Part shown: positions 3,188 to 63,676 of the stretch, piece by piece
Numbering within the stretch: the first letter of the stretch is position 1
Layout of the letters: the number at the start of each line of letters is the position of its first letter
DNA from: a virus
UHGV virus genome: UHGV-0084588
Reading direction: 5' to 3' (one strand)
Length of the DNA: 64,000 bases
The notes under the pieces: generated by a model
Seen by the model: only the letters and a program-made list of their open reading frames with translations
Database searches by the model: none
Told to the model about the DNA's origin: nothing
Translations under genes and position numbers: made by a program

Positions 3188-3205
3188 AGAGATAGATGTT
3201 ACCTG
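3188..3205 (+). promoter_or_regulatory. candidate phage promoter, ATATATTACCT-family variant (agagatagatgttacctg)
   Basis: Resembles the 27-mer at 54336 and 62590; about 50 bp upstream of CDS 3257. Confidence 0.35.
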
Positions 3206-3256
3206 TATGAACGTTGGTACTAAGCGTTTTAATTCGACTTTTTAGGAGCAGGTAAA

Positions 3257-5463: not shown

Positions 5464-5584
5464 TGCGTGCTCCTAATAGGCTCTGTAAAACGGTTCATAG
5501 GATCGGGTAATAGTCCAACCCTGCCTTACTAAAAAATACACTCTGTGCCCTTCCTGTGCGCACTATACTCGAATAATTTTTGTA

Positions 5585-5597
5585 TAGATATTATCTT
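5585..5597 (+). promoter_or_regulatory. palindromic TAGATATTATCT motif (candidate promoter/operator)
   Basis: Same motif family as 13388, 13468 and 27097; 33 bp upstream of CDS 5630. Confidence 0.4.
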
Positions 5598-5629
5598 AAT
5601 GATGTTCCCTTAAAGGAGTATTAACGTTA

Positions 5630-13405: not shown

Positions 13406-13454
13406 TGGTTCGGTAGTTAATCATTTTAAGCTATGTGTGTTTTACGTGTATTCT

Positions 13455-16828: not shown

Positions 16829-17178
16829 AAATACTGGCCCACTAGACGGGAAACCTCTAGTGCGTATCCCTCGAATTGCTGGGAACTCCTAAAGCTTACG
16901 ATCCCGACAGGGTGGCGAAAGTCAGAAACAATTCGTAAGATAGCCTATGCTAACCAATAATGCTAAGGGTTGAGATAATGGATAACCAGCAGCGATGAAA
17001 ATCGTTCAACGACTATCGAAAGGGTAAAACCGAGTAGAGTAGCTGCTTAGTTTAGCGGCGAAGTGGGGGAGACCTACGGGTAGCAATACCTACGGTTATG
17101 ATATAGTCTGTGCCCATGTGAAAGCATGGGAGGGTGTCATTGCACACCTGCTCCAAAAGGAATGGGGTGGACAAACAG
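16829..17178 (+). ncRNA. group I self-splicing intron (350 nt, no internal ORF) interrupting the NADFDGD motif
   Basis: Exon 1 ends in U and intron ends in G; joining gives ...APNA-DFDGDQ...; core-like elements (consensus from memory): P aattgctgggaa (16874-16885), Q aaccagcagc (16984-16993), R gttcaacgacta (17004-17015), S gatatagtc (about 17100-17108). Confidence 0.75.
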
Positions 17179-17418
17179 GATTTCGATGGCGATCAGTTAC
17201 AATGCAGATTGGCAATCGACCAGATTGAAATGGAACTGGGCATGGCTTATCGTCCAGACAACGGGTTTATGTCAAGCACGAATGTGGATGAGGTTTCGAG
17301 CTGCATGATTCTCCATAACGAGAACATCAGCAACATAAACCGTTTCTTCCAGGATACTGAAGAGGACCTGGAGGCCGGTATCGCGCTTGACTCGGAATTA
17401 TTAAAAATGGCGGGGTAA
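17179..17418 (+). CDS. RNA polymerase beta-prime-like subunit, N-terminal fragment, exon 2
   Basis: Begins DFDGDQ...; ...MSSTN matches bacterial ...MMSTNN; same frame as ORF 17134..17418, whose apparent GTG start has no spaced RBS. Confidence 0.7.
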   Translation, partial: DFDGDQLQCRLAIDQIEMELGMAYRPDNGFMSSTNVDEVSSCMILHNENISNINRFFQDTEEDLEAGIALDSELLKMAG

Positions 17419-21862: not shown

Positions 21863-21894
21863 TGTATGTGTGTAGAATACAGTCGAAGTTATCT

Positions 21895-21911
21895 GAGATA
21901 GATTTTATCTT
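21895..21911 (+). promoter_or_regulatory. candidate promoter/operator, TAGAT-TTT-ATCT palindromic variant
   Basis: gagatagattttatctt about 35 bp upstream of ATG 21946. Confidence 0.3.
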
Positions 21912-21945
21912 AGTGCACGACTATGCTATTCCTGGAGATTTTAAA

Positions 21946-23574
21946 ATGCGTATTGAAAAGAATCGTGACCGTTTAGTGATAAAATACGGTGAAAAGGAGG
22001 TCGCGTTTAATGGTTTCCGAAACGGACGTAAAGACGTGAATGTGCCAGACGTACGCGATAGTTTCGGACAGATCGTAACGCATGATAAAATCATGTTCAT
22101 GGAAATCGATCGTTATTGGTCAACTTTAACGCCCGAAGAGAAAAGCGAACTGTTTTCAGTTTACGAAGAATTAGAGTTGTTAGCTAATGAACCCCCAGAA
22201 GTTATTCGTGAACACGTTCCCACACTCGTCGCGAGAATTGCTAAATTTCATCACGCAGATAGATTCCGCCAGCTTTATCCACACGGCTCGGTGTGGATTC
22301 CTCAAAACGTCCACGAAACGTACGAAGAGATGTCGTCGAATTATCCAAAAGAGATGACGTATATTGTACAAGATTATTACGAACTGGTGATTTTGTCTTT
22401 GATGACAAAACCGTTTATTCCAGTATTCTTGATTTTGGACGCTTTTCCTGCAACACGTGCTTCTGTTGAGTCGAAGCGCAAAAGTGTTTATAACCTGACC
22501 TACTGCATGGAGCTATTGTCGGATACCGAGATTGCCACGCTGCCTGCCATTACAAAGTTGCGTGAGTTTTTAGTGTCGGTGATTTCGAAAGTTCAAGACG
22601 GGGGCAGTAAAGGACCCAATACTGCAAATCTTACCGTCCTGGCATCTATCTGCGGCTACGGCACGGATATGGTAGAGGAATACATCGTAGCGTTCGCTGT
22701 TATCCGTTTAATTGCGATGAAGTTAATCGGTGCCGAGCTACCACCGGGTACGATGGTTGAAAACAACATCGTGGCGGGAATGTATTTCAATATTCGACAA
22801 GAAATTGAAACTGGCTTCGCGGGAAAAATTTCCGGTCAAAACGTGATGCTAAAAGCGAATCCTGAGAAAATCATGTTCAACGGCGAGAAGGGGAAAACTT
22901 CGTCGATTGACTTGGTTCAGGCTCGGACTAAAGCACCGATGAAAGAATTCGTTCGTACCCAAGAATTCTTTAATGACTACCGTCGTGCGGTGCGTGCTTT
23001 GAATCTCGATATTGCTCCCGCAGATGTGAAAGTGCTGATAGATTCTATCAACATTAATCATCAGTATCCGTTCTACGAACTCTACGAATGGTTGGTGGCG
23101 GCAGTGATGCACCGATTTGCAGATCGTCGTACATACAAGGAAATCGACTCGGAAGCATTTAAGAACGCGATGGGTATATCCCAAGCCGTTTACATCTATT
23201 ACGGAATGCCTGAGATTGCGCAGCTGTTAAGTTGTGAGATGATCCGGGCACCGCTAAATGGCGGGTATCCTATCGAACCGATCGATAATGAGATTAAAAT
23301 AAAAACGGATAGATATTATCCACAGGCATACCGTAAGCATCGTAATACTTACGAACAGTCAACGTTGAAGGATTCTCTCAGCTTGTTGGTTCGTGAGCAT
23401 ATTGCACCGTTCAACTTCAATCTCAGGGCAACACCGGAAGCAGCCAGAATGTTACGGTGTGGGACAGTGATGTTGGACTATTCGCCTCATCCGCGACTTC
23501 AGAACATGTTAGCAGAATTTCTGTTAATTCAAAACAGAAAGAAATGTGAAGAAGTGGCATGGTTTAATCAATAA
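21946..23574 (+). CDS. hypothetical protein (about 542 aa)
   Basis: ATG at 21946 with ggag RBS, chosen over ORF-track start 21862. Confidence 0.5.
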   Translation: MRIEKNRDRLVIKYGEKEVAFNGFRNGRKDVNVPDVRDSFGQIVTHDKIMFMEIDRYWSTLTPEEKSELFSVYEELELLANEPPEVIREHVPTLVARIAKFHHADRFRQLYPHGSVWIPQNVHETYEEMSSNYPKEMTYIVQDYYELVILSLMTKPFIPVFLILDAFPATRASVESKRKSVYNLTYCMELLSDTEIATLPAITKLREFLVSVISKVQDGGSKGPNTANLTVLASICGYGTDMVEEYIVAFAVIRLIAMKLIGAELPPGTMVENNIVAGMYFNIRQEIETGFAGKISGQNVMLKANPEKIMFNGEKGKTSSIDLVQARTKAPMKEFVRTQEFFNDYRRAVRALNLDIAPADVKVLIDSININHQYPFYELYEWLVAAVMHRFADRRTYKEIDSEAFKNAMGISQAVYIYYGMPEIAQLLSCEMIRAPLNGGYPIEPIDNEIKIKTDRYYPQAYRKHRNTYEQSTLKDSLSLLVREHIAPFNFNLRATPEAARMLRCGTVMLDYSPHPRLQNMLAEFLLIQNRKKCEEVAWFNQ

Positions 23575-27073: not shown

Positions 27074-27096
27074 AATCGTTCCTAAAATAAGTGAGA

Positions 27097-27108
27097 TAGA
27101 TATTATCC
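27097..27108 (+). promoter_or_regulatory. TAGATATTATCC motif (candidate promoter/operator)
   Basis: Same family as 5585, 13388 and 13468; about 30 bp upstream of ATG 27137. Confidence 0.4.
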
Positions 27109-27136
27109 TACTGATTCAACCTAAAGGAGTATTAAA

Positions 27137-36593: not shown

Positions 36594-37448
36594 ATGATTG
36601 ACATTTATACCGATTACGCCGCCGTTCTTACCGTCAATCGTGCGGAAGAACGTGCTGCGCCTTTCCTGGACTTAGTAACGCTGTGCATGGATTACGGTTA
36701 CGATGTTGCGTTAAGCGATGTGTATTGGCAACCGTCGTCTGATCCTGCCGACGAAACCGTAAGACTGGAAGGGATTATTGTAAAATGCGCAGTGGCGTTA
36801 GGTAACCGTTTAGGCGTTGCTTTAAACCCACAAGAAGTTTTCCGTAAACCGAAAGAGACCGTACGTATTCTAGACGGCATTACGTCTAAATTCGAAGAGT
36901 TCGAAGACACCGATACGTTATACGGTCTTGTGATGTCTGGAGAAACGCCAGAGTTTATCCTGGAAAGTATCTGCCGTTACGTGTACGGTGACGATAATAT
37001 CCATTTTGAAGATTTGGTCATTCGTGTTTCACCCCGTGTAATGACAGTGATGCGTAATTATCTCTCAGCTATGGTTGTGGATGAGCAACTCGCTGTAGGT
37101 AACGATGTACGTCTGACGCGTATTGCAGAATACTTGCGTCTTTATCCGCAAAATCCCTCTGCGTTCGTATTCTTAAACTTACCTGAAGATCCTGATTTGA
37201 CGGTTGTCCAACAATCGTTAGTCTTTGACGTCGAGGATTACAGCGAAACAGAATTGCTCGAGATGTATACGGTAGGACTTTCGATTATCGATAACGATGA
37301 CTTCGATGACGCGTATGCTGATCTTTCGACGAACTTAGAGAAACTTAATAATGATGGGTTACAACCCATTACTGTTTTACAACCTGCTTTAAAAAGCCTA
37401 CGGGTGATTTATCGGGTTGAGGAGGCAGAGCACGATGACGAGGTTTGA
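36594..37448 (+). CDS. hypothetical protein (about 284 aa)
   Basis: ATG at 36594 with ggaaaagg RBS (ORF track begins at TTG 36582). Confidence 0.5.
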   Translation: MIDIYTDYAAVLTVNRAEERAAPFLDLVTLCMDYGYDVALSDVYWQPSSDPADETVRLEGIIVKCAVALGNRLGVALNPQEVFRKPKETVRILDGITSKFEEFEDTDTLYGLVMSGETPEFILESICRYVYGDDNIHFEDLVIRVSPRVMTVMRNYLSAMVVDEQLAVGNDVRLTRIAEYLRLYPQNPSAFVFLNLPEDPDLTVVQQSLVFDVEDYSETELLEMYTVGLSIIDNDDFDDAYADLSTNLEKLNNDGLQPITVLQPALKSLRVIYRVEEAEHDDEV

Positions 37449-38736
37449 GTTCTTAGTAGCGGCATGTAAAGCCGAAGCATGGCGTCGCTTGGTTTGGCGC
37501 ATTGCTATCTTTAACATGTCGGTGTTTCCAACTGGGCGTGAAGAACCCGAAGCGTTTGATATTACGTACATTGACGGCTTACCGCATTATTACGCTGTAG
37601 AAGACGGCAAGGGCAGTTGGGAACCGATTACCGACGGTGTAAAGGATCAGGAGCTGTTTATCCCTGAAGAACAGTTCGAACTCCGTCCCGACGACTATCC
37701 CGGTCTAGAAGGTCCTATCCCCACGACAGTAGGGCGATACGTTTTTAACTGGATTGTTATCTGGTATGCTTTTGGTACACGTTTACCTTATCTGGCGATT
37801 TCACAAAACCCGTTGGAATACCGCAAAGAGATGCATCGGCGCTGTTTAGACCATGAATCCGATGAGCCAGAAAACGAAGGTGCGATTCGTCCGAGTATGA
37901 TTGAACGCTTTGTAAGCGGCTTACACGAACTCGCTCCTCTCACGTCAGGTATTGCACCAACCGGTACGTTACGAAGCCTTACGGTGCATCCTGATGCGTA
38001 TAAAATTCGCGATGCGTTGCTGTTGAAGCATAAGGATGAATTAGACGATCCTGCCGTTATCGTTAAGATTGAAAAAGCGTTGGATGAGTTAGACAAAGAG
38101 TGGTTGTCAGGTGACCAATCTATTGAGTTTTATAACTCGCCGAAATCACGGATGCGTCGTCGTAAATTAATGTTGATGTACGGTATTGAGTCGTCTTTTC
38201 AGGAAGGGGGACATTACACGCTCATTCCGAACGCGTTAGTTGAAGTTGATAAGGCGGGGATGGAAAACCTGGTTGCGAAATTCAACTCTATCCGTGAAGG
38301 TTCATTCTCTCGTGGTGCAGAAACAGCGAAAGGGGGTGAGCAGGTACGTATTATCCAGATGATTTTCCAGAACCATCGAATCGTCCCTGGTGACTGTGGA
38401 ACGAAACTAACGTATCCGGTTGTGATTACCGAAGATAACGTAAAACGTTACGTTGGGATGAATGCGATGGTTAATGGTAAACTGACGCCACTGACTGAGG
38501 AATATTTAAAGCAGCAGTTAGGTAAGGTGGTGCGGTTACGCCGACCCATCTTATGTCAGTATGGCCACATCGACACCTGCACAGCGTGTTCGTCAGCGAA
38601 TAAAGGGGAAGAACCTCGTGCAATCGCTGCGGATATATCCTCGGCGTTCTCTAACGTTATGTCCGTGGCAATGGCCGCGATGCACGGTAAAGAGACTGTG
38701 GTACACGAATTTAATCCATCGATCCACATTACGTAA
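37435..38736 (+). CDS. second RNA polymerase beta-prime-like C-terminal fragment (paralog of 29374-31473)
   Basis: SFQEG...REGSFSRGAETAKGG matches NFREG...HGARKGLADTALKTANSG; IVPGDCGT matches VVTEDDCGT; CTACSSANKGEEPRAIAADISSAF matches CAHCYG...NKGEAIGVIAAQSIGE; same 65-aa DCGT-to-CxxC spacing as 29374. Confidence 0.55.
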   Translation: MTRFEFLVAACKAEAWRRLVWRIAIFNMSVFPTGREEPEAFDITYIDGLPHYYAVEDGKGSWEPITDGVKDQELFIPEEQFELRPDDYPGLEGPIPTTVGRYVFNWIVIWYAFGTRLPYLAISQNPLEYRKEMHRRCLDHESDEPENEGAIRPSMIERFVSGLHELAPLTSGIAPTGTLRSLTVHPDAYKIRDALLLKHKDELDDPAVIVKIEKALDELDKEWLSGDQSIEFYNSPKSRMRRRKLMLMYGIESSFQEGGHYTLIPNALVEVDKAGMENLVAKFNSIREGSFSRGAETAKGGEQVRIIQMIFQNHRIVPGDCGTKLTYPVVITEDNVKRYVGMNAMVNGKLTPLTEEYLKQQLGKVVRLRRPILCQYGHIDTCTACSSANKGEEPRAIAADISSAFSNVMSVAMAAMHGKETVVHEFNPSIHIT

Positions 38737-52992: not shown

Positions 52993-54258
52993 ATGGCGAA
53001 TTTCTACAAAAACAAAATTGCTCGTGAGTCTATGGAGTCTACCGCTACTGTAGTTCCAGACGGCATCGAACTGCCAGCAGAATCCGTAGAAGGTACTCTG
53101 GCCGATATCGAGCATGACACCAAACCGATCGAAGCCCTGGACGCTGACGCTGAACTGCTGGCAGAAGACGGCGACGAAACTGACGCTCAGCTGGATGTTC
53201 TGGATGAAGCTCAGGCCGCTGCTGACGGTGAAGGTGCTGGCGAAGACGGCGAAGACCCGATGGACGCCGAAGAAGATATGCCGGACGACGCTGCGACCGC
53301 GCTGGACGTTGCTCAGGAATCTATCCGTTCTCGTTGGAACTTCGAACACCGTTCTTCTGTTGCTCACGAATCTTACGGTTCTCGTAACCGTCGCCAGGTG
53401 GCTCGTGAATCCCTGTGGGAAGACATTAAAGCCTTCCTGGGCCGTATTCTCGATTGGCTGAAAGAACAAGGCCGTAAACTGAAAGATCGCTGGCTGAAAT
53501 TCCACAACCAGGGTAAATCTATCCAGGCGCGTGCTAAGAAATACGATGAAGTTATTCGTAAGCTGGGCAAACAGAAGAAAGATGAGATCTCTGGTGGCTT
53601 CATCAAGTCTCTGTCTATCGATGGCAAGTTCGTCGGTGATAATATTCCGAAACTGAAAGGTATCCTTAACCAGGTTTCCACATTCTATAGCGCTAAGATG
53701 CCTGCCATGGCCTCTAAAGCTGCTGAAGTGGTTTCCGATGTTACCAAAGGTAACGGTGTTAAAGTTGAAAAACTGAAAGCCGACTTTACCGAACTGTCCA
53801 AACAAGACAGTCTCCAAAACTTCAAACTCGGTAACATGGCAGTGAAAACCGAGTATGACAACGAAGGCGGCTTCAGCTCCACTTTTGTTGAAGCTGAAAA
53901 TAGCGTTGAAACTAGCGTGAAAACTCCGTCTGTTGGCGAACTGGCTAAAATCAATGCTCTCTTCAACGAAGTGGGTAAACAGATCGAGAAGAACGTTCAG
54001 GATTATCGTAAAGTCGAAAGCGCGCGGAAAACTTTTGAAGATAATATCGATAAGCTCCTGAAAGAAGTCGATAAAGTTAAGATCGACGAAAAACCGGAAC
54101 TGACCGAAGGTGTACGTGCTGCCCGTCGTTTCATCACCAGCGTTAACCAGGGCCTGTCTCTGGGTGAGAAGGTTATTGCTTCTACTCAGAAACACCTGGC
54201 CGGTGGTCTGAACGGCTACCTGAGTGCTGGTATCGGCGCTTACGAAAAATCTAAATAA
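52993..54258 (+). CDS. abundant acidic protein, paralog B (421 aa); function unknown
   Basis: Same conserved blocks as paralog A; acidic D/E-rich N-terminal region. Confidence 0.65.
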   Translation: MANFYKNKIARESMESTATVVPDGIELPAESVEGTLADIEHDTKPIEALDADAELLAEDGDETDAQLDVLDEAQAAADGEGAGEDGEDPMDAEEDMPDDAATALDVAQESIRSRWNFEHRSSVAHESYGSRNRRQVARESLWEDIKAFLGRILDWLKEQGRKLKDRWLKFHNQGKSIQARAKKYDEVIRKLGKQKKDEISGGFIKSLSIDGKFVGDNIPKLKGILNQVSTFYSAKMPAMASKAAEVVSDVTKGNGVKVEKLKADFTELSKQDSLQNFKLGNMAVKTEYDNEGGFSSTFVEAENSVETSVKTPSVGELAKINALFNEVGKQIEKNVQDYRKVESARKTFEDNIDKLLKEVDKVKIDEKPELTEGVRAARRFITSVNQGLSLGEKVIASTQKHLAGGLNGYLSAGIGAYEKSK

Positions 54259-54275
54259 TCTCTGATTGTTTAGTA

Positions 54276-54323
54276 AGAGAACCACCCTGTAATGGGGTGG
54301 TTCTCTCTTTTCTTTTTTTTTTC
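54276..54323 (+). terminator. rho-independent terminator
   Basis: hairpin gagaaccaccc-tgtaat-ggggtggttctc followed by a long T-run. Confidence 0.75.
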
Positions 54324-54335
54324 GATTAAAAACAA

Positions 54336-54362
54336 TTTCAGATATATATTACCTAGGTGAGA
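54336..54362 (+). promoter_or_regulatory. candidate strong phage promoter, 27-mer TTTCAGATATATATTACCTAGGTGAGA
   Basis: Identical 27-mer at 62590-62616; contains TATATTAC; about 50 bp upstream of ATG 54413. Confidence 0.55.
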
Positions 54363-54412
54363 TTACACAGTAATCTCTTTACGACTTGTTTATTACGTTT
54401 AGGAGAAATATC

Positions 54413-55054
54413 ATGAGCCGCATTAATTTAACTGATTTCGTTGATGGTGTTGTGTCTATGGAGAAAGGCACCGTTACGATGGTGGCACCGAATAGTAAAG
54501 TTGTTATTTTAAATCCGGTAGAACTGATTTCTATTTCTACCTGGTTGCGTTTACTTTCTGATAAGAAACCTAAAGACCAAGCGAAGGGCGGGTTGTTAGT
54601 AGGTCCACGCGAGTTTGTTTTCAAAGACATAACCCAAGATAAACTGGACAGTATTGCTAAAGAACTGAACGGCAAGCATAAAACCCGCGACATCGGGAGT
54701 ACCGAACATGACGGTGTAACGTACCATGCATTTCTTGATAGTCACGTAGCATTGCGTGAAAAAGAAAATGGGGTGTACGAATCAGTTTGTTTCTTTCATT
54801 TAATCGCACCAACAGAAAACGATGCTGTGTATGGCACTGTTGAAAAATCGGCGGAAGCTGTTATGGAAACGGTGTCAGAACTTGTAGAAGGGATGAAAAG
54901 AATCCCACGTGTGTTGAAGGTTACTGATGGTGCTATCGATTGTTTTAAATTATTGCCCTTAATAGCTAGTAAAGAATACGAAGTTGAGAACACGTTTGGG
55001 CTATTCGAAATTAGTCTTTCGGAAGCAGTTGTTACTTTCTTCGAAGCTTTATAA
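54413..55054 (+). CDS. hypothetical protein (213 aa)
   Basis: ATG at 54413 with aggag RBS downstream of the conserved 27-mer. Confidence 0.55.
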   Translation: MSRINLTDFVDGVVSMEKGTVTMVAPNSKVVILNPVELISISTWLRLLSDKKPKDQAKGGLLVGPREFVFKDITQDKLDSIAKELNGKHKTRDIGSTEHDGVTYHAFLDSHVALREKENGVYESVCFFHLIAPTENDAVYGTVEKSAEAVMETVSELVEGMKRIPRVLKVTDGAIDCFKLLPLIASKEYEVENTFGLFEISLSEAVVTFFEAL

Positions 55055-55055
55055 T

Positions 55056-55089
55056 CAGAAAGCCCTCCGTAGAGGGCTTTATTTTTTCG
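55056..55089 (+). terminator. rho-independent terminator
   Basis: hairpin agaaagccctc-cgta-gagggcttt followed by T-run. Confidence 0.6.
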
Positions 55090-55107
55090 ACCTTTAGGAG
55101 AATAGAA

Positions 55108-55659
55108 ATGAACAAATTTAATATCTTAGACGCTGAAGTCGTATCTGAAACCAGCCTACAGCAGGAAATTTTCCGCATTCAGTTTGGCGATAAAACCCTT
55201 ATCGTCCCACGACCGGTAATGATTGGACTGGCTATTTTTATTAACTGCGCGCATTGTAATGGTTCTCAACTTTCCACGCTCACTTACGGCAATTACGAAT
55301 TCTATATTCCAGAGCACCTGGAATATAATCGTTTCATCGCTTTACGTCCGTTCTACAAGTTTATGTTAGACGCAGGTTATTCTACACTGACGAAAACATA
55401 CATTCGTGATTATTCGAAGCTGGAAACGTTCTATCGTCGTCGTAGTTATCGTGTTCCTGAGCCTATTGACGGTTTTCAAACCCGTGTTGTATTACTTAAA
55501 CCGCTAGAAAAAGAACTGGCTTGCTATAAACTTGATATTGAGCAGAAGTTACTGCGTGAGGATTTGTTGAATTTATACAACCAACTTTCAGTTGTACCGA
55601 AAGCCACAGTAGAAAACATTCTACCTGATTACGGAATTAGACAATATCAGGAAGGTTAA
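55108..55659 (+). CDS. hypothetical protein (183 aa)
   Basis: ATG with taggag RBS. Confidence 0.55.
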   Translation: MNKFNILDAEVVSETSLQQEIFRIQFGDKTLIVPRPVMIGLAIFINCAHCNGSQLSTLTYGNYEFYIPEHLEYNRFIALRPFYKFMLDAGYSTLTKTYIRDYSKLETFYRRRSYRVPEPIDGFQTRVVLLKPLEKELACYKLDIEQKLLREDLLNLYNQLSVVPKATVENILPDYGIRQYQEG

Positions 55660-55660
55660 A

Positions 55661-55966
55661 ATGAAACTCAAAGCCGATGCGATATGTGTTGTTAAGTTGC
55701 CGGAAAGTAATGTGGTGTACTGCGTAAAACGGCTGGACATCCGATTACTGATACCGAGACTTAATGAACCTGGTTGGAATGGGGATTTGATGATTCCACT
55801 GATCAGACCACTTCCTACGAACGATGGTAATATAACGCATTTGCACATGGAAGCCAAAGGGCGGTACATCACCGTTTACCATTTGGCCGATCAGTACAAA
55901 ACGAGTCGGTATACCCGAAGGGATTTTATACGGCATTTAAGGGGCTCACTGGAGATAGAGAAATGA
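55661..55966 (+). CDS. hypothetical protein (101 aa)
   Basis: ATG 2 nt after upstream stop; ATGA overlap with DHFR gene. Confidence 0.5.
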   Translation: MKLKADAICVVKLPESNVVYCVKRLDIRLLIPRLNEPGWNGDLMIPLIRPLPTNDGNITHLHMEAKGRYITVYHLADQYKTSRYTRRDFIRHLRGSLEIEK

Positions 55967-56499
55967 CAATTACAGTTTCGATGATAGCTGCTGCTGGGTT
56001 GAATAACGAAATTGGGAAAGACAATAAACTACCGTGGCGTATTCCCGACGACTTAAAGAATTTTAAGGCACTTACATCAGGTAAAGTTATCGTGATGGGA
56101 AGCAAGACATGGGAATCGTTAGGGTATAAACCCCTACCCAATCGTCACCACGTTGTGTTAACGAGAAGACCTGGTGGTGTGCCAGAAATCGATGGGGTGC
56201 TTAACCTTAAGGGTGAAATGGGTTCGATTATTGAATTCCTCAAAACCGAGGTTGAGAAAAAGGGTTATCCTAAGGAAATCTTTATTATCGGTGGCGCAGA
56301 AATTTACCATCAGGCGTTACCTTACGTGGATAAGATTTACTTGTCACGTGTGGAGGTTAAAGTTGATGGTGCAGATGCGTTCTTTCCTGAAATCGATCGT
56401 AGCAAGTTTGGACTGGTTTATAACTTAACACACGCTTCCAAACCGGATAGCGATGTTCCACGTTGGCATTATCAGATTTGGAAAAGAGATGGGCACTGA
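55963..56499 (+). CDS. folA: dihydrofolate reductase
   Basis: SMIAAAGLNNEIGKDNKLPWRIPDDLKNFKALTSGKVIVMGSKTWESLGYKPLPNRHHVVLTR matches the DHFR N-terminal signature; 178 aa. Confidence 0.9.
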   Translation: MTITVSMIAAAGLNNEIGKDNKLPWRIPDDLKNFKALTSGKVIVMGSKTWESLGYKPLPNRHHVVLTRRPGGVPEIDGVLNLKGEMGSIIEFLKTEVEKKGYPKEIFIIGGAEIYHQALPYVDKIYLSRVEVKVDGADAFFPEIDRSKFGLVYNLTHASKPDSDVPRWHYQIWKRDGH

Positions 56500-56785
56500 G
56501 TTTGCAACCTTAGAAAAGCTCTTTTTAGGTAGCGTTGCGAAAAGGAAAATAGCGCGCTTCTCTTGGTATCCTTCCCCTGCAAAACACGCGTTCATACGTC
56601 GTTTACATCAAGAGAAAAGTGTCAGGCTGGTCTTGATAGTGTTGTTCGAAAACAGCCGTGGGTTGTTGATTAACAACCACCGTTTTGCGGCAGAGATTTG
56701 GGCAACCACATCTGGGGGCGAGGAAGCGTCTGTTGGCTTCGCTAACGACGAGATTATCTTTGAAGGTATACCTTATCTGTTATAG
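56489..56785 (+). CDS. hypothetical protein (about 98 aa)
   Basis: ATG at 56489 with RBS, overlapping the DHFR stop. Confidence 0.4.
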   Translation: MGTEFATLEKLFLGSVAKRKIARFSWYPSPAKHAFIRRLHQEKSVRLVLIVLFENSRGLLINNHRFAAEIWATTSGGEEASVGFANDEIIFEGIPYLL

Positions 56786-56798
56786 GTAGTTTAAACGT

Positions 56799-56833
56799 AA
56801 AAGGGGACTTCGGTTCCCTTTTATTTTTTTTTC
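56799..56833 (+). terminator. rho-independent terminator
   Basis: hairpin aaggggac-ttcg-gttccctt followed by a long T-run. Confidence 0.65.
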
Positions 56834-56874
56834 ATTTCGCGCCTGTGATATGACTATAACGAAGGAACAAGCCA

Positions 56875-58383
56875 ATGCAACAGTATTTTGAAATTCCGTC
56901 GTTAGACGCGACCATTCGCAAACCAATAATCGATGGTGTTATACAACGTGTACTTAATGAGTCTGGTATCGATACAGCAGCGGTTGTTTTCCTCGATGAA
57001 TTCAATAGCGCCCATCAACCAGATTCCACGTTAGGTGACGGTACTGATGTAGAGTACAGTTCACCTGAAAAGGTTTACGTTGAAGTAGAAGAAGAACGCG
57101 ATGAGTGGGCAAGAATCAACCGTCAGGTTGGTCAGCAGGCTGAACCGTACTTCTTTGAGAACCATGTCGATCAGGTACGCGCCTGGCCCGTTAGAACGAT
57201 GTATAACGTAACAGTAACGTTACGACGTACCAGTGCCTCACGTGATGAGTTATTGCGCTGGACGAACCGTTTAGACTCGTTAGTGGACATGGGTCGTTAT
57301 TCGACCATGACGGAGTCAGAAGCGTTCTATTATATCCCTAAACCTGCTTTAAAATTGTTGAATGCCTGCTACGTTGCTGCGGGAACGCGAGTACCAACGT
57401 TTGGCGATTTTAAAGCCTATTTGAAAGCGTATTTTACGCCCGATGTATTTCGCGCAGCTAATGTTGCTGGCGGTCAGGAAACCATTGCGGTACGTTACGC
57501 ACCTACGCGTTTAGAAACGGTATATGATGTTCAAACACCGGCCTGGGATAAAGATGAAAACCGCTGGGAAGCAACGTTCGTTATCCGTTTCTCTTATCAG
57601 CGTCCTGAGGAGATTGTGGTTTCGTATCCGTATATCATCAATCAGACACCACTGCCTGATGAATATTGGCCGGAGATAGATCCTCCGTGGGTATCTAACG
57701 AGGAGTTAGTTTACCGCCATCCTCAGCAACGCAATCTGGATTCGACCTGGTGGATTAACGAAACTCGTCAGTATATTCGTCTCCCGTATTTGTTATCCCC
57801 CACGGAACAGTTCCATCGTACACACTCTCCGCTTAAAGATAAACTCTTACCGATTTTTGGTACAGATGTTGTTTTTGAACCGGACAACATGTTATCGCCG
57901 AAGGTGATGTCTACGGAAGATTTACCCTACGAGTGGAACGAAGCGTTGCTGCCGTATATCGAACATTGTCGTGCGATAGACCCGACAGGACAGACGGGCG
58001 TATTCCGTGTCGAGCTGTTCGAAGAGGGACAGATTATCGAACCGCGTTTCTACCATTGGGAAGGAAATACGTTTTCGCTTAAAGGTCGTGACCTGAAAGT
58101 AAATAAGGGTTATTACTTAACCGAATCGGTTATGTTTGACTGGCGTGGAATGAACCTCTGGCCATTACAGTTATATCCGCAGGCAGCGAAAGTGTTAATT
58201 GAATGGTTGTTCCCGAAATGGGACGTTCCTGATTGGTGGTGGGATAAGCCGGTGTTACCGCCGAGTGTTATCGATGACATTAATAAACTGATTCCGAACG
58301 TAGAAGCCCGTGTGTTACTGACGATGCTGAACTCGACCATTATTACCATGCGAGGAACAGAGAATGCTCAAAGCGAAGCGTGA
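56875..58383 (+). CDS. hypothetical protein (502 aa)
   Basis: ATG with gaagga RBS; first of a run of coupled genes. Confidence 0.6.
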   Translation: MQQYFEIPSLDATIRKPIIDGVIQRVLNESGIDTAAVVFLDEFNSAHQPDSTLGDGTDVEYSSPEKVYVEVEEERDEWARINRQVGQQAEPYFFENHVDQVRAWPVRTMYNVTVTLRRTSASRDELLRWTNRLDSLVDMGRYSTMTESEAFYYIPKPALKLLNACYVAAGTRVPTFGDFKAYLKAYFTPDVFRAANVAGGQETIAVRYAPTRLETVYDVQTPAWDKDENRWEATFVIRFSYQRPEEIVVSYPYIINQTPLPDEYWPEIDPPWVSNEELVYRHPQQRNLDSTWWINETRQYIRLPYLLSPTEQFHRTHSPLKDKLLPIFGTDVVFEPDNMLSPKVMSTEDLPYEWNEALLPYIEHCRAIDPTGQTGVFRVELFEEGQIIEPRFYHWEGNTFSLKGRDLKVNKGYYLTESVMFDWRGMNLWPLQLYPQAAKVLIEWLFPKWDVPDWWWDKPVLPPSVIDDINKLIPNVEARVLLTMLNSTIITMRGTENAQSEA

Positions 58384-59734
58384 TAAACCGTCTTCTTTCG
58401 AACCGGTGGAACGCCCGATACCTGAGTTGAATAAACCGCAAGACGGCGTGAAGGAAACCACGAACGTGGTGACACAGCCGACCCGTACAACGGTGACGGA
58501 TTTAGAGCGTATACCGAAGCAGTACCTGATGAAATACCTGGAAGGGTCTTCCTGGACTGTTGATTTCTTTAACTTCTTGAAAGGACGTAACGACGCGAAG
58601 AAATTCTTCGATTCGAAGGTGCTTACGCCTGACCAACAAGTAGAGAAAATCATCGGGTTAGAATTGCGTGTCACTACACCGTTAGATCGTTCTCAGGACA
58701 CAACAAACAAAACGTTCACCATGTCCGGTGCCGCAACAATGGCGAACTCGGTGATTCCCAATGAAGGGTGTTTTTTCGTTGCCCCGATTGGAGACGGACG
58801 GTTTGCGTTGTTCAACGTCACTAACGTCGTGCGGATGTCCAATAACAAAATTGCAACGTATAACATCGAGTATACATTGCTGTTTGAAGTTGATCCGGGC
58901 GTTGCAGAAACCATTCGTCGCTGTACGGTTCGTGAGTATTATTACGTTTCTGAACGTGCCTGGACGGGCGGTGATACGTTACTGACACCGAAAGAATACC
59001 GTGCGTTTTTGAAAGTTGTTGATGCTATTGCGGATATTGAACAGACTTACGTAAAACGGTTTTACGATGGGGAAACGGCAACGTTGCTTTTCCCCCACGA
59101 TCGTCACAGCGATGGGTTGCGTAGTCGCGCGTATTACGATGTGTTCTTGGCACAGTTTGTACGCTCTGTAGGCTTACGGACCGTCGGTAAAGATATTCAA
59201 ATCTACCCGCACCCACCAATGCGTGTGGAAGATATTGAAACGGTCTGGACAGCATTGTTAAATCAATCGCCAACGTTCTTAGCGGATTACAAACGTGATT
59301 CCAGTGTCTGGCAGGTAAAAACCTTCCGCACGATGCAGCATCGGAATTCTGTGACCTGGTCATTAATTTCGGATACCCGATTCTTTACCGATGAATTAAA
59401 ACCGGGTTATGGGATGGCACAACGTTTTCCTGGACAGTGGCCGAAGTGGACGGAGTTTGAACCGGTTGAAGTGGAGAACTATCGGGGTAACGAAGGCGAA
59501 TCGATCCCTGCGTTTTTACCGCTGACCTACAAGCCGTATTTGTTAAGCCCAACGTTTTACGAGGGCTCGTACAGTTCGTTATTAGAATACGGTTTATATC
59601 TCTATCTGAATAAGCGACCACTGTCGACGGTAATTGCGTTGCGGTTGTTTGAAGAAGTTTACCGTTTGCCGAAGGATGCGCAATTCTATTACATCCCGAT
59701 GGTGTATTTGTTGTTACGGTATGCGAGGGATTAA
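58364..59734 (+). CDS. hypothetical protein (456 aa)
   Basis: ATG with gaggaacagag RBS, overlapping upstream gene by 20 nt. Confidence 0.55.
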   Translation: MLKAKRDKPSSFEPVERPIPELNKPQDGVKETTNVVTQPTRTTVTDLERIPKQYLMKYLEGSSWTVDFFNFLKGRNDAKKFFDSKVLTPDQQVEKIIGLELRVTTPLDRSQDTTNKTFTMSGAATMANSVIPNEGCFFVAPIGDGRFALFNVTNVVRMSNNKIATYNIEYTLLFEVDPGVAETIRRCTVREYYYVSERAWTGGDTLLTPKEYRAFLKVVDAIADIEQTYVKRFYDGETATLLFPHDRHSDGLRSRAYYDVFLAQFVRSVGLRTVGKDIQIYPHPPMRVEDIETVWTALLNQSPTFLADYKRDSSVWQVKTFRTMQHRNSVTWSLISDTRFFTDELKPGYGMAQRFPGQWPKWTEFEPVEVENYRGNEGESIPAFLPLTYKPYLLSPTFYEGSYSSLLEYGLYLYLNKRPLSTVIALRLFEEVYRLPKDAQFYYIPMVYLLLRYARD

Positions 59735-59735
59735 C

Positions 59736-60275
59736 GTGGCTGAAAAACGTAGCGCAGCATTTATGCTGTTTCACAAGTGGGTAGGATGGCGTGTTCCTGA
59801 ATGGACGACGATTTCAACGTATATGTCTCAGGAACATGGGTTGTTCTTACCGGAAGACGAGAAAAAAGCACGCGCGATACTGCTAAATAAAAAGACCGTA
59901 TACATGCGACCTTTCGAAGTTGCGGTTTATGCAGAAACGGGTGCGGCATTAGACGTCCACGACCCACATGACGGGATTATCGTGTACGGGTATATCATGG
60001 AGCACTTAGCCGATTGGCTAAACTACATGCAGACCCCACACTTAACAACACGTAAAGTCCCTATGGAGGGCTTACGTCAGTTTAATGCGTTAGCGCGTAA
60101 ACTGTTCCCGGTAGCGAACCGTTACGGTTACTTTAAGAAACCTGAAGTAACCATGGTGGTTTCCGTACAAGCGTTATTTGGCGAAGTCCGATTGGAAACA
60201 GAACGGCATCAGTTCAACGATACGATTATGCACCGTATTGAACAGATATACCGTAGACGTGGAGGAATTCTGTAA
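59736..60275 (+). CDS. hypothetical protein (about 180 aa), GTG start
   Basis: In-frame GTG directly after upstream stop with gagg RBS; ORF-track start 59634 would overlap by 100 nt. Confidence 0.45.
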   Translation: MAEKRSAAFMLFHKWVGWRVPEWTTISTYMSQEHGLFLPEDEKKARAILLNKKTVYMRPFEVAVYAETGAALDVHDPHDGIIVYGYIMEHLADWLNYMQTPHLTTRKVPMEGLRQFNALARKLFPVANRYGYFKKPEVTMVVSVQALFGEVRLETERHQFNDTIMHRIEQIYRRRGGIL

Positions 60276-61594
60276 TGTCGTTTGGTCGGTTACAGAACAT
60301 AGCAAACGTGCACATTGCACAAGCGGCGGGATTACCGGCCATCGACTACGTACCCCTTATTACAGTTCGTGGGGTGACGATCGACGTTTACAAAACCATG
60401 TCGATAATCCATGCCAGTAATTTCGCTCAGGATTTAACGACTATCACACATCTCAGTGTGGTAATTCCACTGAGCCAGCAACGTATTCTTACGTCGTCGG
60501 CAGAAGGGGATTTATCAGTTAAAATCCTGATGCGGACAATGAACAAGAAAACCATTGCTCAACTGAACTACCGAGGAATCGTGGTTAACAATCACGATCC
60601 CGATATGGAATCGCCCACGATGTTCTTGGGTGAGTCTGACCAAAAAGGGTTGGGCGTGGTGACGTTGGAACTGATGGACGAATCGATGTGGTTCCTTCGC
60701 TGTCGGCAGGTAGGAGGGATTTACCACGAAACAGACGGATTAAGTGTCGTTCGTGCATTGCTTGCTGATACGTTACCTACTGGGGATGCACCAGAAGGTC
60801 AGTTGGTTGGTGTGGAATACGAGGAAGAAGAACAACAGCCTTATCGTGACATTTTGATTCCCGATTCGCAAAGTTTTCTTTCGGTTTTCGATTTCATTCA
60901 GAACCGTTACGGTGTGTATAGCCAAGGATTAGGTGTCTTCTTGTATAAACACCGTTGGCATATCTTTCAACCGTGGGATTCTAAGAAATTCTCTACGGCG
61001 AAAAAGAAACTGGTGGTAATTAACCTTCCAAGAGAGAAAGTTGCCTATTTAGATAAAACGTGCCACATTGCAGGTGACGTCATTTATCTGATTTGTGGTG
61101 GCGATGTTCACACCTTCGAAGACAAAGACGCCCTTGCGCTAAATCAGGGAACGGGTTACCGCGTGGGTTCAATCCGTGCCTTAGATGGACGTGCAAGTTC
61201 TTTCTCTCCAGGCGATGTTTCGGCAACGACGTCAGATTCGTTTGTTTCAGCAGCAGACCCTACACAGTACCCTGGTGGTGTTGTTAATGCGCCTATTGAT
61301 CCAAACGAGCACTTCAGCGACACGGATAAGCCCCGTCGTTCTAAGTTGGCTGCCGCCAGAGGGACACTGACCGCAACGACCTGGAACCGTTCAGCGTATG
61401 GCTTATTGCAGCCGGGTATGGCAGTAAAATATCTGTATGCGAATAATTACGGTGTATACACTCGTTATGGGACGTTGGTTGGTGAAGTTTTCCAAGCTGC
61501 TGTTGATGGCGGTTCGATGGCGTCCCCACAATTCAATACCATTAGTCAATTGACGTTGTGGTTGACTAATGAAAAATTTACAACCGCTACGTAA
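60275..61594 (+). CDS. hypothetical protein (439 aa)
   Basis: TAATG junction; ggagg RBS. Confidence 0.6.
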   Translation: MSFGRLQNIANVHIAQAAGLPAIDYVPLITVRGVTIDVYKTMSIIHASNFAQDLTTITHLSVVIPLSQQRILTSSAEGDLSVKILMRTMNKKTIAQLNYRGIVVNNHDPDMESPTMFLGESDQKGLGVVTLELMDESMWFLRCRQVGGIYHETDGLSVVRALLADTLPTGDAPEGQLVGVEYEEEEQQPYRDILIPDSQSFLSVFDFIQNRYGVYSQGLGVFLYKHRWHIFQPWDSKKFSTAKKKLVVINLPREKVAYLDKTCHIAGDVIYLICGGDVHTFEDKDALALNQGTGYRVGSIRALDGRASSFSPGDVSATTSDSFVSAADPTQYPGGVVNAPIDPNEHFSDTDKPRRSKLAAARGTLTATTWNRSAYGLLQPGMAVKYLYANNYGVYTRYGTLVGEVFQAAVDGGSMASPQFNTISQLTLWLTNEKFTTAT

Positions 61595-61626
61595 ATTATG
61601 TTGTCCGTAACCTAAAGGATTTGTTA

Positions 61627-62427
61627 ATGAGTAATCTACTTACTTTCAGAATGTCTGGCCAAACGTTAATCCAAATCGACAAGTTCGAAGAAGAGAATTT
61701 TTCGAAACCGTCGAAGTTGTTAGAACGTTGCCTTAATGTTATTCCTGGTGGCGAACAACGCCAGTTGGATTACATCATGGCGTCCAGTGCTGACAAAACG
61801 ATTTCTGTTATTTATACCGTAGACGGTGTACAGAATTGTCGCTTATTACCAATCGAAGAAAAAGGGACGTTAGGTCACTTGTTGTTCCTGCACGCGATCA
61901 CAACTGCTGTGGTGTCTGGTGCTTTAGAAGCGCAATACGGCTTTGCTTATTGTTACTTCTATGCTCAGAAATTGGCTGCAGCGGTTACCCCAGGGCAACA
62001 GGAAACCTATCCTCAGTATATTGAACGTATTCTCCCTTCACACTTTAGTGAGTCGGAAGACTATGACTTCAATGCGTTTCGTTTTACCGTAGTGGGTGAA
62101 GCCCGCGATCCTGAATACACAACAGCGGTTCGTGCGGTGGTGCGCTATTCTGTGATTTCTACAGACAGCGGTACATCAAATAACTTTAATGAAGTGTACC
62201 CGGTCTTGCAGTTAGGTCCTTATGTGACTTTCAACAGCTACGTACCATTCAGTTGCCAGCTTGTGGGTCCGCAGGATAACGATTCTATTCTCCCTGTTGC
62301 GGAAGAAAAGTCATTGTTTATTCGCGAATCTGTAGAAGCTATTAGCGATAAGCGCTTTATGATTTCTTCGAAGACGGGCATTAGCGATCCTGAAATCGCT
62401 GTAATGGATAAGATGCAAGGTCTGTAA
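61627..62427 (+). CDS. hypothetical protein (about 267 aa)
   Basis: ATG at 61627 with aaagga RBS. Confidence 0.55.
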   Translation: MSNLLTFRMSGQTLIQIDKFEEENFSKPSKLLERCLNVIPGGEQRQLDYIMASSADKTISVIYTVDGVQNCRLLPIEEKGTLGHLLFLHAITTAVVSGALEAQYGFAYCYFYAQKLAAAVTPGQQETYPQYIERILPSHFSESEDYDFNAFRFTVVGEARDPEYTTAVRAVVRYSVISTDSGTSNNFNEVYPVLQLGPYVTFNSYVPFSCQLVGPQDNDSILPVAEEKSLFIRESVEAISDKRFMISSKTGISDPEIAVMDKMQGL

Positions 62428-62429
62428 AA

Positions 62430-62472
62430 ACTTCCCGTTACCTCTGTGGGTAACGGGAATACCTTTTATTTA
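62430..62472 (+). terminator. terminator-like hairpin
   Basis: cttcccgttacc-tctgtg-ggtaacgggaa followed by a T-rich stretch. Confidence 0.55.
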
Positions 62473-62589
62473 TCGCTAAACGCCACGCAGAAGTCATTTC
62501 ACCATTAAGGCGACTAATTACCCTTTAAAAAGAAAATCGCGTTAGAATGCGTTTTAGAGCGTTCTAGAGGGTATATGGATTCAAAAAGA

Positions 62590-62616
62590 TTTCAGATATA
62601 TATTACCTAGGTGAGA
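62590..62616 (+). promoter_or_regulatory. candidate strong phage promoter, 27-mer TTTCAGATATATATTACCTAGGTGAGA (second copy)
   Basis: Identical to 54336-54362; about 47 bp upstream of ATG 62663. Confidence 0.55.
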
Positions 62617-62662
62617 GTTTACGTAATACTCATTTATCGAATACCTAATTAGGAGTTATATC

Positions 62663-62806
62663 ATGATTTCTGTAAAACACAAAAAAGCTATCTTCGCTGT
62701 TGTTATCGCTGTTGTTCTGGGTTGCCTGTACCTGGACATCGACAAAGGCTACGACACTTGCATCGACAACGGTAATTCCGTTGCACAGTGCACTGGTCGT
62801 GGTTAA
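62663..62806 (+). CDS. small membrane protein (47 aa), not in the ORF track
   Basis: taggag RBS 7 nt upstream of ATG; MISVKHKKAIFAVVIAVVLGCLYLDIDKGYDTCIDNGNSVAQCTGRG; optimised codons; own promoter and terminator. Confidence 0.6.
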   Translation: MISVKHKKAIFAVVIAVVLGCLYLDIDKGYDTCIDNGNSVAQCTGRG

Positions 62807-62810
62807 TGTA

Positions 62811-62843
62811 TAAGGCACCTTCGGGTGCCCTTAATTTTTTTAT
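62811..62843 (+). terminator. rho-independent terminator
   Basis: hairpin aaggcacc-ttcg-ggtgcctt followed by TTTTTTT. Confidence 0.7.
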
Positions 62844-62860
62844 TAATTGGAGCATAAAAG

Positions 62861-63676
62861 ATGATTACTATTAAAGATTATTTTCCGCGTGGGCTGAGCA
62901 ATGAAAACTTCGTTCCAACTGAAGACATTGCCATCGTTGCAGAGTCTAACGATAAGTCTTTTAAACTCTACTTGAGTACAGCAGCAGGAAAATCTACTCT
63001 TATCCTTCGTGAACCTGAAGTGATAAGCATCTGCTCGTTTGGGGGCGGTGTAGAAGGAACGATTAACTGGTTGAAATCCAGAATGCATCGTTTACTTATC
63101 GTGAATACCGATCCTACGATTCGATTACAGCAATTGAAATCGTTGAATGAAGTTATCGTCGGATTATTGGAACACGAAACGTTCGGTAGTGCTGAGATTG
63201 CGGAAGCGATTAAATCTGTAGAACTGATCGAGTGGAGTGATATCGAATACGAACGTGCTGCGTTATTCGCAATGTACGGTGACGATAATCCCGTTGTGTT
63301 TGCACAAACGTTGGATAATGTTACCGTGACGGCGCGCGTATTGTTCGGCTTGCAACGTGTTGAGTTTGAACTGAAACACGTTTATGTAAGTAATACTCCA
63401 GAGATGGTGGAAACGTTGACTCGTGCGTTCGCTTACCCGTTAGACGGAGAATGGGAACAGCAGATTAATGAAGCGTTAGGCGCAATGCTGTTCTTAGCAG
63501 GCACACTAAGGAAAGAAGAGAAATTAGAAGGTCGTGTCTACCCAGAATACGATTTTGTTTGTGAAGAATGTGGAGCACAGTATCAAATACGTGTTCCTTT
63601 AACCGGCCTGACAATCCCGAAAGCCAACGTGGAATGTAAAGAATGTGGCCATGTTCAATACGTAGCGACTAAATAA
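62861..63676 (+). CDS. hypothetical protein (271 aa) with C-terminal zinc-ribbon
   Basis: CEECG...x17...CKECG; ATG with ggagcataaaag RBS. Confidence 0.6.
   Translation: MITIKDYFPRGLSNENFVPTEDIAIVAESNDKSFKLYLSTAAGKSTLILREPEVISICSFGGGVEGTINWLKSRMHRLLIVNTDPTIRLQQLKSLNEVIVGLLEHETFGSAEIAEAIKSVELIEWSDIEYERAALFAMYGDDNPVVFAQTLDNVTVTARVLFGLQRVEFELKHVYVSNTPEMVETLTRAFAYPLDGEWEQQINEALGAMLFLAGTLRKEEKLEGRVYPEYDFVCEECGAQYQIRVPLTGLTIPKANVECKECGHVQYVATK

Follow-up and report, generated by a model that had tools for sequence, protein, structure and literature searches.

Repeated intergenic elements of an SPN3US-like jumbo phage are probable early promoters of the phiKZ type, and one subclass is followed by a predicted 5'-terminal stem-loop

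A 64,000-nucleotide stretch of the virus genome UHGV-0084588 (hereafter, the window) carries the 27-mer TTTCAGATATATATTACCTAGGTGAGA twice, each time upstream of a gene, which raises the question of what kind of signal this element is and which polymerase might read it. An earlier note, made from the letters of the window, had proposed a strong phage promoter. The analysis presented here indicates that the two 27-mers very probably belong to the kind of early promoter known from phiKZ-like phages (Chimalliviridae), used by a multisubunit RNA polymerase (RNAP) packaged in the virion (vRNAP). This type of element is already well described, and our findings leave the known picture of phiKZ-like transcription unchanged. 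They provide predicted early start points for an uncultivated 225-kb jumbo phage (IMG/VR UViG_3300029126_000001) and for the genetic model phage SPN3US, for which no promoter map was found in the accessible literature.

The 27-mer was found in exactly two copies in the window, both on the + strand, at 54336-54362 (copy 1) and 62590-62616 (copy 2), as the earlier note had it; allowing up to three mismatches still gave only these two matches, and none was found in 100 dinucleotide-preserving shuffles. The likeness of the two copies extends over about 39 nucleotides, from GATT (-35, relative to the start site predicted below) to GAGA (+4), with two mismatches, and the sequences are divergent beyond. 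The ATG of the next gene lies 51 nucleotides (gene 54413) and 47 nucleotides (gene 62663) after the 27-mer, close to the 50 bp previously estimated. An intrinsic terminator precedes each copy, with the ribosome-binding site AGGAG and then ATG coming after it, and the terminator in front of copy 1 insulates it from the upstream gene. Both 27-mers include ATATATATTAC. The blocks of copy 1 are an A-rich GATTAAAAACAA, TTTCAG at -23 to -18, the core TATATTAC at -14 to -7, and the spacer CTAGGT.

According to a review, every RNAP-encoding jumbo phage possesses an AT-rich motif, conserved over about 10 nucleotides centred near -10, that is located upstream of early operons and that, where transcripts have been profiled, turned out to be the early promoter used by the virion RNAP (PMC7598289). 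The published consensi are TATATTAC for phiKZ, TTTRARR_BTATATTACDWHDGTG for 201phi2-1 and TTTCARRYAKATATTATYWAAGTGWA for OBP and N1M2 (PMC7058600, Table 2), so the phiKZ resemblance that the earlier note had pointed to is confirmed in print. In AR9 the early promoter is AAATATATATTAT-(6N)-G+1, and in phiKZ and phiR1-37 the transcription start site (TSS) also lies 6 nucleotides past the core (PMC5312081). In 201phi2-1, ONT-cappable-seq placed the motif about 10 bp before mapped TSSs, with positions -10, -20 and -30 conserved (PMC11512511). Since the 27-mer agrees with these consensi almost base for base and also obeys the spacing rule, the predicted +1 is G 54359 for copy 1 and G 62613 for copy 2.

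The elements closely resemble the early promoters of phiKZ and 201phi2-1, whose TSSs were mapped by primer extension, differential RNA sequencing and ONT-cappable-seq. The 8-nucleotide core is identical, a TTT-N-A-R-R block stands two bases upstream, GTG follows with the G six bases downstream, the -10, -20 and -30 regions are conserved, and tens of copies per genome precede early operons. The present elements differ in belonging to phages of another genus and host range, the enterobacterial SPN3US/Erwinia-like phages, and in that an OBP-like TATTAT variant coexists in the same genome with a form whose CYTAGGT spacer is invariant. Sites of the TATTAT type (e.g., TGAGATAGATATTATCCTACTGA) fit the OBP/N1M2 consensus at nearly every position, the 27-mer fits it at all but a few, and there, as here, a gene for an RNAP beta subunit has the motif in front of it; however, the OBP (Pseudomonas) and N1M2 (Klebsiella) sites are bioinformatic predictions in other genera, and the 31 copies of N1M2 are of one type whereas the window mixes two. 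The early promoters of AR9 (Bacillus), for which experiments have established early timing and no need for protein synthesis (PMC5312081), share the AT-rich register ATATATATTAY and the 6-nucleotide spacer to a G start, but AR9 is a distant relative with a uracil-containing genome, forms no nucleus and lacks the TTTCAG block.

An ordinary sigma-70 promoter, read by the bacterial RNAP with TATATT as its -10 box, would be one alternative, given that the core TATATT/TATTAC is -10-like and the AT-rich DNA upstream resembles an UP element. However, a scan of 54150-54500 and 62400-62900 for -35/-10 pairs spaced by 16-18 nucleotides gave no match at either copy (0.7 and 1.5 in shuffles), and the invariant TTTCAG at -23 to -18, C at -6 and GTG at -2 to +1 are unlike sigma-70 architecture. 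Moreover, none of 185,579 representative genomes from bacteria and archaea contains the exact 25-mer of the element, which also led us to reject a bacterial origin, and transcription in phiKZ-type phages is independent of the host RNAP (PMC7598289). The sigma-70 explanation was rejected as exceedingly improbable.

Are the two copies special as a pair? A position weight matrix (PWM), built from window sites only and assessed against 50 shuffles, was used along with a relaxed search in which further + strand sites followed the pattern atAGATATTAYC-N5-GA. Together they yielded no fewer than nine window sites, all on the + strand, of which the two 27-mers are the best-conserved members; rather than being special as a pair, these are thus part of a family. 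The motif search that the earlier note had suggested, run on the window, brought out six sites beyond those it had flagged, and the degenerate copy it had placed at 3188-3205 was recovered as a PWM site at 3188-3210 with a score of 25.1. A site not used as seed (21894-21916) was also recovered, with a score of 23.5 against 17.4 for the best shuffle. Every strong PWM match in the window was on the + strand, and eight of the nine sites were intergenic, although intergenic DNA makes up 8.8% of the window (p = 3e-8); the distance from these eight to the next + strand ATG was 24-125 nucleotides. The bare 8-mer TATATTAC showed no enrichment in the window (3 found, 1.9 expected) and was rejected as the signal by itself, the longer motif being what carries it.

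The consensus of 31 sites, from -34 to +2, comprises an A-rich block, TnTCAGATAKATATTAYCT (-23 to -5) and GTG(+1)A. All 31 have G at +1, exactly 6 nucleotides past the core, and A at -29; A-13, T-12, T-10, T-9 and A-8 are near-invariant within the core, and the upstream blocks are TnTCAG (-23 to -18) and AA at -29/-28. Two subclasses, differing at -14 and -7, were distinguished. Class A, TATATTACYTAGGTG, combines the core TATATTAC with the invariant spacer CYTAGGT and includes both 27-mers, whereas class B has a TATTAT core with a variable spacer and accounts for six of the seven remaining window sites.

The DNA of the window shows patchy similarity (about 72%) to Salmonella SPN3US-like phages and short matches to Erwinia jumbo phages, and its gene order tracks that of SPN3US, a phage counted among the Chimalliviridae, from about 2 to 66 kb. 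The IMG/VR contig UViG_3300029126_000001 (225 kb) represents essentially the same phage as the window. The window thus belongs to a jumbo phage of the SPN3US/Erwinia-like group, with genes for two multisubunit RNAPs, one virion and one non-virion (nvRNAP). When the PWM from the window was applied to the complete SPN3US genome, 21 sites scored 18 bits or higher, against none in shuffles. Twenty of the 21 fall between genes and point the same way as the neighbouring gene, which is annotated in 19 cases, whereas site 72490 has only an unannotated short open reading frame (ORF) behind it; the remaining site, 25230, lies inside gp30, 276 nucleotides upstream of gp31. Counterparts of the window sites were present before gp9, gp30, gp34, gp55 and gp66, as a tandem before gp22, and inside gp30. 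The identical 25-mer precedes gp55, gp66 and gp180 of SPN3US, with +1 predicted at 56313, 65432 and 165706. The sole - strand site is palindromic, lies in the spacer between the divergent genes gp220 and gp221, and appears to serve both.

The conserved sequence might alternatively be mainly an operator, to which a repressor, a switch factor or some other dimeric DNA-binding protein of the phage would bind: AGATA-T-TATCT, the class-B core, is near-palindromic with reverse-strand PWM matches at the same sites, class A includes the palindrome CCTAGG, and SPN3US gp101, behind one of the sites, is annotated as a transcriptional regulator. The motif is nevertheless asymmetric overall, with the A-rich block upstream only and GTGA downstream only, its orientation always matches that of the downstream gene, its spacing to the invariant G is fixed, and the closely similar motifs of phiKZ, AR9 and 201phi2-1 lie about 10 bp upstream of mapped TSSs. 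We therefore consider it very unlikely that the sequence is mainly an operator, while an operator overlapping the promoter could still be present.

The genes behind the sites bear on which polymerase would read them. nvRNAP subunit homologs were found at 15461, 27137 and 29374, corresponding to SPN3US gp23, gp34 and gp35, with RNAP matches in PHROGs and with gp34 corresponding to phiKZ gp071. The class-B site at 27092-27114 precedes the genes for nvRNAP beta (27137-29374) and beta' (29374-31473). Since nvRNAP genes need to be transcribed before nvRNAP exists, a site upstream of them fits an early promoter used by the vRNAP. Among the vRNAP genes, the window contains the homolog of gp42, which has been identified as a virion RNAP subunit in SPN3US by mass spectrometry (PMC5105663); the other subunits are encoded outside the window. 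No motif was found upstream of this homolog, nor upstream of the SPN3US vRNAP genes gp42, gp218, gp240/241 and gp244. The main annotated structural clusters of SPN3US (gp140-153, gp167-170 and gp238-241) have no site upstream either, although several annotated structural genes were not individually checked. Gene timing is assigned here by homology.

By BLAST, the element occurs in 68 phage records; the exact 25-mer is present in one to four copies per genome in each of seven jumbo-phage genomes, and many IMG/VR contigs of jumbo size show the general pattern TTTNARRNNTATATTACNNNNGTG. The class-A form is kept without change across several phage genera. When orthologous spacers are compared, no base of the promoter block varies up to and including +1, while the flanks have diverged and the terminator keeps its structure only; the block of copy 1 is unchanged in the orthologous SPN3US spacer, and that of copy 2 across five orthologous spacers. 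Collectively, the AT-rich core, the G 6 nucleotides downstream, the -20 and -30 blocks, the many intergenic and co-oriented copies, the site upstream of the nvRNAP genes, the lack of sites before vRNAP genes in SPN3US, the presence of a vRNAP gene in the phage and the conservation across related phages fit an early promoter of the virion RNAP.

Whether both classes are used by the same enzyme at the same time is a separate matter. Class A might be a promoter class of its own, read by the nvRNAP, or by the vRNAP together with a co-injected protein, at another time in infection, with class B alone being truly early. The differences at -14 and -7, the invariant class-A spacer and a hairpin at +1 in 9 of 10 class-A but 6 of 22 class-B sites are in line with this, and the argument from the nvRNAP genes covers only a class-B site (core 27098). 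On the other hand, it is class A, not class B, that is identical to the experimentally validated early core TATATTAC of phiKZ and 201phi2-1; both classes have a common -34 to +2 layout and the invariant G, and the published middle and late motifs of phiKZ (TACT at about -22; TATG) are unlike class A. We thus judge a separate, non-early class A to be improbable.

The hairpin deserves closer description. The earlier note had mentioned a similar short hairpin after each 27-mer, and this was borne out: at copy 1 a perfect 8-bp stem-loop (z -3.7) begins at the predicted +1, and at copy 2 the hairpin is weak and imperfect (z -0.2). In the SPN3US ortholog of copy 1 the structure is GAGATTGC-ATTG-GTAATCTT, with pairing kept via G-U, and in that of copy 2 an unrelated sequence forms a perfect stem, GATAGA...TCTATC. 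Using as criterion that pairing begins at +1 to +3 with a dG of -3 or lower, the hairpin was counted at the class-A and class-B sites of the window and SPN3US (the frequencies given above) and in 24% of random GA-starting 30-mers, so that class-B sites are not enriched. When class-A copies were gathered from about a dozen genomes, 26 of the 33 distinct ones had the hairpin, with 17 different 5' arms (e.g., GATAGA/TCTATC, GAGAGT/ACTCTC, GAGCATTGA/TCAATGCTT, GAGGAT/ATCCTC). The sense fold was more stable than the antisense one in 29 of the 33 (p = 4e-5), and G-U pairs made up 26 of 211 hairpin pairs. Stems had a mean of 7 pairs and 42% GC. At 94 pattern sites in other jumbo phages, the frequency was 22%, equal to the control rate and to be compared with 77-79% of class-A copies. 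The idea that phiKZ-like early promoters carry the hairpin in general was therefore rejected; it is specific to the class-A subclass. No Rfam family reached its gathering score at either copy, the window matching only a group I intron and a tRNA, both elsewhere. The sequence, the family, its conservation, its placement and this structure were read directly from the DNA.

The hairpin could alternatively be an attenuator or terminator, or a mere DNA palindrome. Several copies continue after the stem as ...AATCTTTT, short RNAs derived from 5' untranslated regions (UTRs) by premature termination have been reported in 201phi2-1 (PMC11512511), and the SPN3US copy at 165691 has a true terminator within about 60 nucleotides. 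However, the six nucleotides after the stem hold 2.15 T against 1.9 expected, none of 27 hairpins is followed by five or more T, the stems are AT-rich, and a strand-specific structure with G-U pairs is not needed by a DNA palindrome. We give this alternative hardly any credence. Given the absence of a T-run, class-A transcripts are best read as beginning, relative to the predicted +1, with a 5'-terminal mRNA stem-loop. Its stem starts at the very base predicted from the published spacing rule, which lends modest independent support to that start.

5'-terminal stem-loops are known to slow 5'-end-dependent mRNA decay in Escherichia coli, as in the ompA leader. The class-A hairpin resembles an ompA-type leader in that its stem starts within 2 nucleotides of the predicted 5' end, has about 7 bp of mixed AT/GC composition and precedes the ribosome-binding site, and in that conservation concerns its structure and not its sequence; it differs in that the 5' end is a predicted one and that only one promoter subclass, in one phage clade, has it. 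Phage N4 injects a single-subunit virion RNAP, and there a hairpin upstream of the start is the promoter itself. An injected virion polymerase and early promoters with a small hairpin are common to N4 and the mechanism proposed here, whereas in the present case the signal is linear (-34 to +2) and the hairpin, variable in sequence, stands downstream of the predicted start. A class-A-specific 5' stem-loop has possibly not been reported before.

Taking these data together, we infer as follows which enzyme reads the element, where and when transcription starts, and what the hairpin does. The injected vRNAP would recognise a double-stranded signal from about -34 to +2, composed of the A-rich block around -29, TTTCAG at -23 to -18 and the AT-rich core (A)TATATTAC at -14 to -7. 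Transcription would begin at the invariant G six bases past the core (54359 and 62613) and would produce mRNAs with 5' UTRs of about 50 nucleotides for a 213-aa protein and a putative 47-aa membrane protein. At class-A sites, the stem-loop flush with the predicted 5' end would most likely shield the early mRNA from 5'-end-dependent decay, and one class-B site would drive the genes of the non-virion polymerase.

Several points weigh against this proposal. The hairpin of copy 2 is weak, and a stabilising role for the structure would draw only on general knowledge of E. coli mRNA decay. The differences between the classes at -14, -7, the spacer and the hairpin make the use of one enzyme at one time an assumption. 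Neither transcript 5' ends nor expression timing for SPN3US-like phages were found in the accessible literature. When the AR9 paper appeared, purification of a vRNAP of this group, or in vitro binding of one to such a site, had yet to be achieved (PMC5312081), and in 201phi2-1, where only six early promoters were detected experimentally, some nvRNAP genes have none nearby (PMC11512511).

A bolder version, which we hold to be rather doubtful, is that the class-A module, made up of a 25-mer unvarying down to its spacer and a sequence-variable stem-loop at the 5' end, is a distinct regulatory unit of SPN3US/Erwinia-like phages in which the 5' stem-loop tags a subset of immediate-early mRNAs, classes A and B differing in kinetics or factors. 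Such a tag might protect these mRNAs from RNA-targeting defences or from the host's 5'-end-dependent decay, or might serve transcript handling in the early-infection vesicle. In any case, the subclass-specific stem-loop is a testable hypothesis on the protection of early jumbo-phage mRNA, and the 21 SPN3US and nine window sites point to candidate early genes and offer compact, host-independent promoter parts.

Table 1. Positions of the promoter sites and associated features in the window (PWM, score in bits; +1, predicted start).
Feature	Position	Strand	Details
TTAC-core family member AGAGATAGATGTTACCTGTATGA (core 3194)	3188..3210	+	PWM 25.1; +1 at 3209; terminator before; gene 3257-3697 after
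Class-B site (core 5586)	5580..5602	+	PWM 26.3; +1 at 5601; gene 5630-5953 (phrog_9874) downstream
Class-B tandem, 80 bp apart (cores 13389, 13469)	13383-13405, 13463-13485	+	PWM 30.6, 30.0; +1 at 13404, 13484
Class-B site (core 21900)	21894..21916	+	PWM 23.5; +1 at 21915; terminator before; gene 21946-23574 after
Weaker site in 3' part of gene 21946-23574 (core 23311)	23305..23327	+	PWM 16.6; 279 nt before gene 23605-25311
Class-B site (core 27098)	27092..27114	+	PWM 27.5; +1 at 27113, 24 nt before 27137
vRNAP beta'-middle subunit gene	37417..38736	+	phrog_2962; synteny with SPN3US gp42
Gene upstream of copy 1	52993-54258	+	phrog_2497, internal head protein
Intrinsic terminator, 14-bp stem (54276-54306) and T-run	54276..54322	+	Terminator scan; ends internal-head-protein gene
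Copy 1, probable class-A early promoter, -34 to +2	54325..54360	+	+1 = G 54359; contains 27-mer
Copy-1 stem-loop GAGATTAC-ACA-GTAATCTC, perfect 8 bp	54359..54377	+	-8.2 kcal/mol, z -3.7; first paired base +1
213-aa gene	54413..55054	+	AGGAG 54401-54405; predicted 5' UTR 54 nt; positional ortholog of SPN3US gp55
Terminator hairpin after gene 61621-62427	62432..62459	+	Terminator scan
Copy 2, probable class-A early promoter, -34 to +2	62579..62614	+	+1 = G 62613; contains 27-mer
Copy-2 hairpin GAGAGTTTACGTAATACTC, imperfect, weak	62613..62631	+	-2.7 kcal/mol, z -0.2
47-aa gene	62663..62806	+	phrog_8574; ortholog of SPN3US gp66; AGGAG 62651-62655
Terminator closing 47-aa gene	62814-62829	+	Terminator scan

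The coordinates of all sites are collected in Table 1. With regard to the genes behind the two 27-mers, the 213-aa protein had no PHROG, Pfam or PDB match. The 47-aa product (MISVKHKKAIFAVVIAVVLGCLYL..., MISVKHKKAIFAVVIAVVLGCLYLDIDKG...) has a hydrophobic N-terminal helix, consistent with the membrane protein that the earlier note had predicted behind this copy. Since its gene is closed by a terminator of its own, a transcript of about 220 nucleotides carrying the 47-aa gene only is predicted.

Upstream of copy 2, outside the promoter consensus, a GCGTT-repeat block (GCGTTagaatGCGTTttagaGCGTTcTAGAGGGTAT, 62539..62575, + strand) was observed, consisting of three 10-bp-phased repeats, GCGTTagaat GCGTTttaga GCGTTcTAGA, and terminating in GGGTAT. 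SPN3US, Caitlin, ChrisDB and another uncultivated virus genome all keep it in the corresponding spacer, at a varying distance from the promoter. In SPN3US, tandem copies are found at the intergenic loci 65366 and 137556 and once inside gp186, with single copies near the end of the record. With two intergenic tandem loci in SPN3US the block is too rare for a second promoter class, and this option was rejected; it is possibly a protein-binding array.

Concerning the other sites, the counterpart of 5580..5602 is SPN3US 7394, upstream of gp9, and that of 21894..21916 is SPN3US 23814, upstream of gp30. The weaker site at 23305..23327 is probably an internal promoter, and its counterpart inside SPN3US gp30, upstream of gp31, scored 26.2. 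From 27098 to 54344 (about 27 kb), the window PWM scan gave nothing that scored 14 bits or higher. The genes in this gap include a helicase, parts of a DNA polymerase, the vRNAP gp42 homolog and structural genes; those past the nvRNAP pair may accordingly form one long early operon or depend on middle or late promoters of a kind not recognised here.

The tandem class-B pair precedes a gene for a clade-specific 615-aa protein (13529-15376), and the same arrangement is found before SPN3US gp22. Each of the two sites (13378-13485) sits in one copy of a roughly 30-bp direct repeat, aaaATATCTTAGCTAGATATTATCTAyGTGA. Their cores are near-palindromic, with - strand scores of 17.4 and 14.3 towards the divergent gene 12259-13320, and might therefore act both ways, as the gp220/gp221 site of SPN3US appears to do. 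The 615-aa product was considered as a phage-nucleus shell protein and set aside, as it has no PDB or Pfam match and its homologs are clade-restricted.

The gp23-homolog nvRNAP subunit gene is split by a full-length group I intron (Rfam RF00028, 61.4 bits) at 16819-17130 (+). Residues 1-456 of SPN3US gp23, which is uninterrupted in that phage, align to ORF 15461-16960 and residues 457-528 to ORF 17134-17418, the latter part opening with the catalytic DFDGD motif. A tRNA gene at 1676-1748 (+; Rfam tRNA, 38.3 bits) is syntenic with the tRNA-Trp gene of SPN3US.

In SPN3US itself, within 165691-165780 and upstream of gp180, an exact class-A promoter is followed by the hairpin GAGTTAA-gaga-TTAACTC and then by a terminator consisting of a GC-rich ggctaccttcgggtagcc and a T-run, no more than about 60 nucleotides from the promoter; this locus could act as a regulated leader or else specify a non-coding RNA of very short length. 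Within the 1.2-kb non-coding region that opens the SPN3US record, a stretch of about 130 bp (95-240), extremely AT-rich and palindrome-rich, is flanked by GC-rich CGCGTGCGCG repeats and may be an origin-like or terminal region. Finally, a group of five other jumbo-phage contigs showed the promoter pattern followed by GAATA and a strong hairpin from +6 (e.g., GGATACAA...TTGTATCC, -7 to -10 kcal/mol), which suggests that other clades carry leader hairpins of their own at a different offset.

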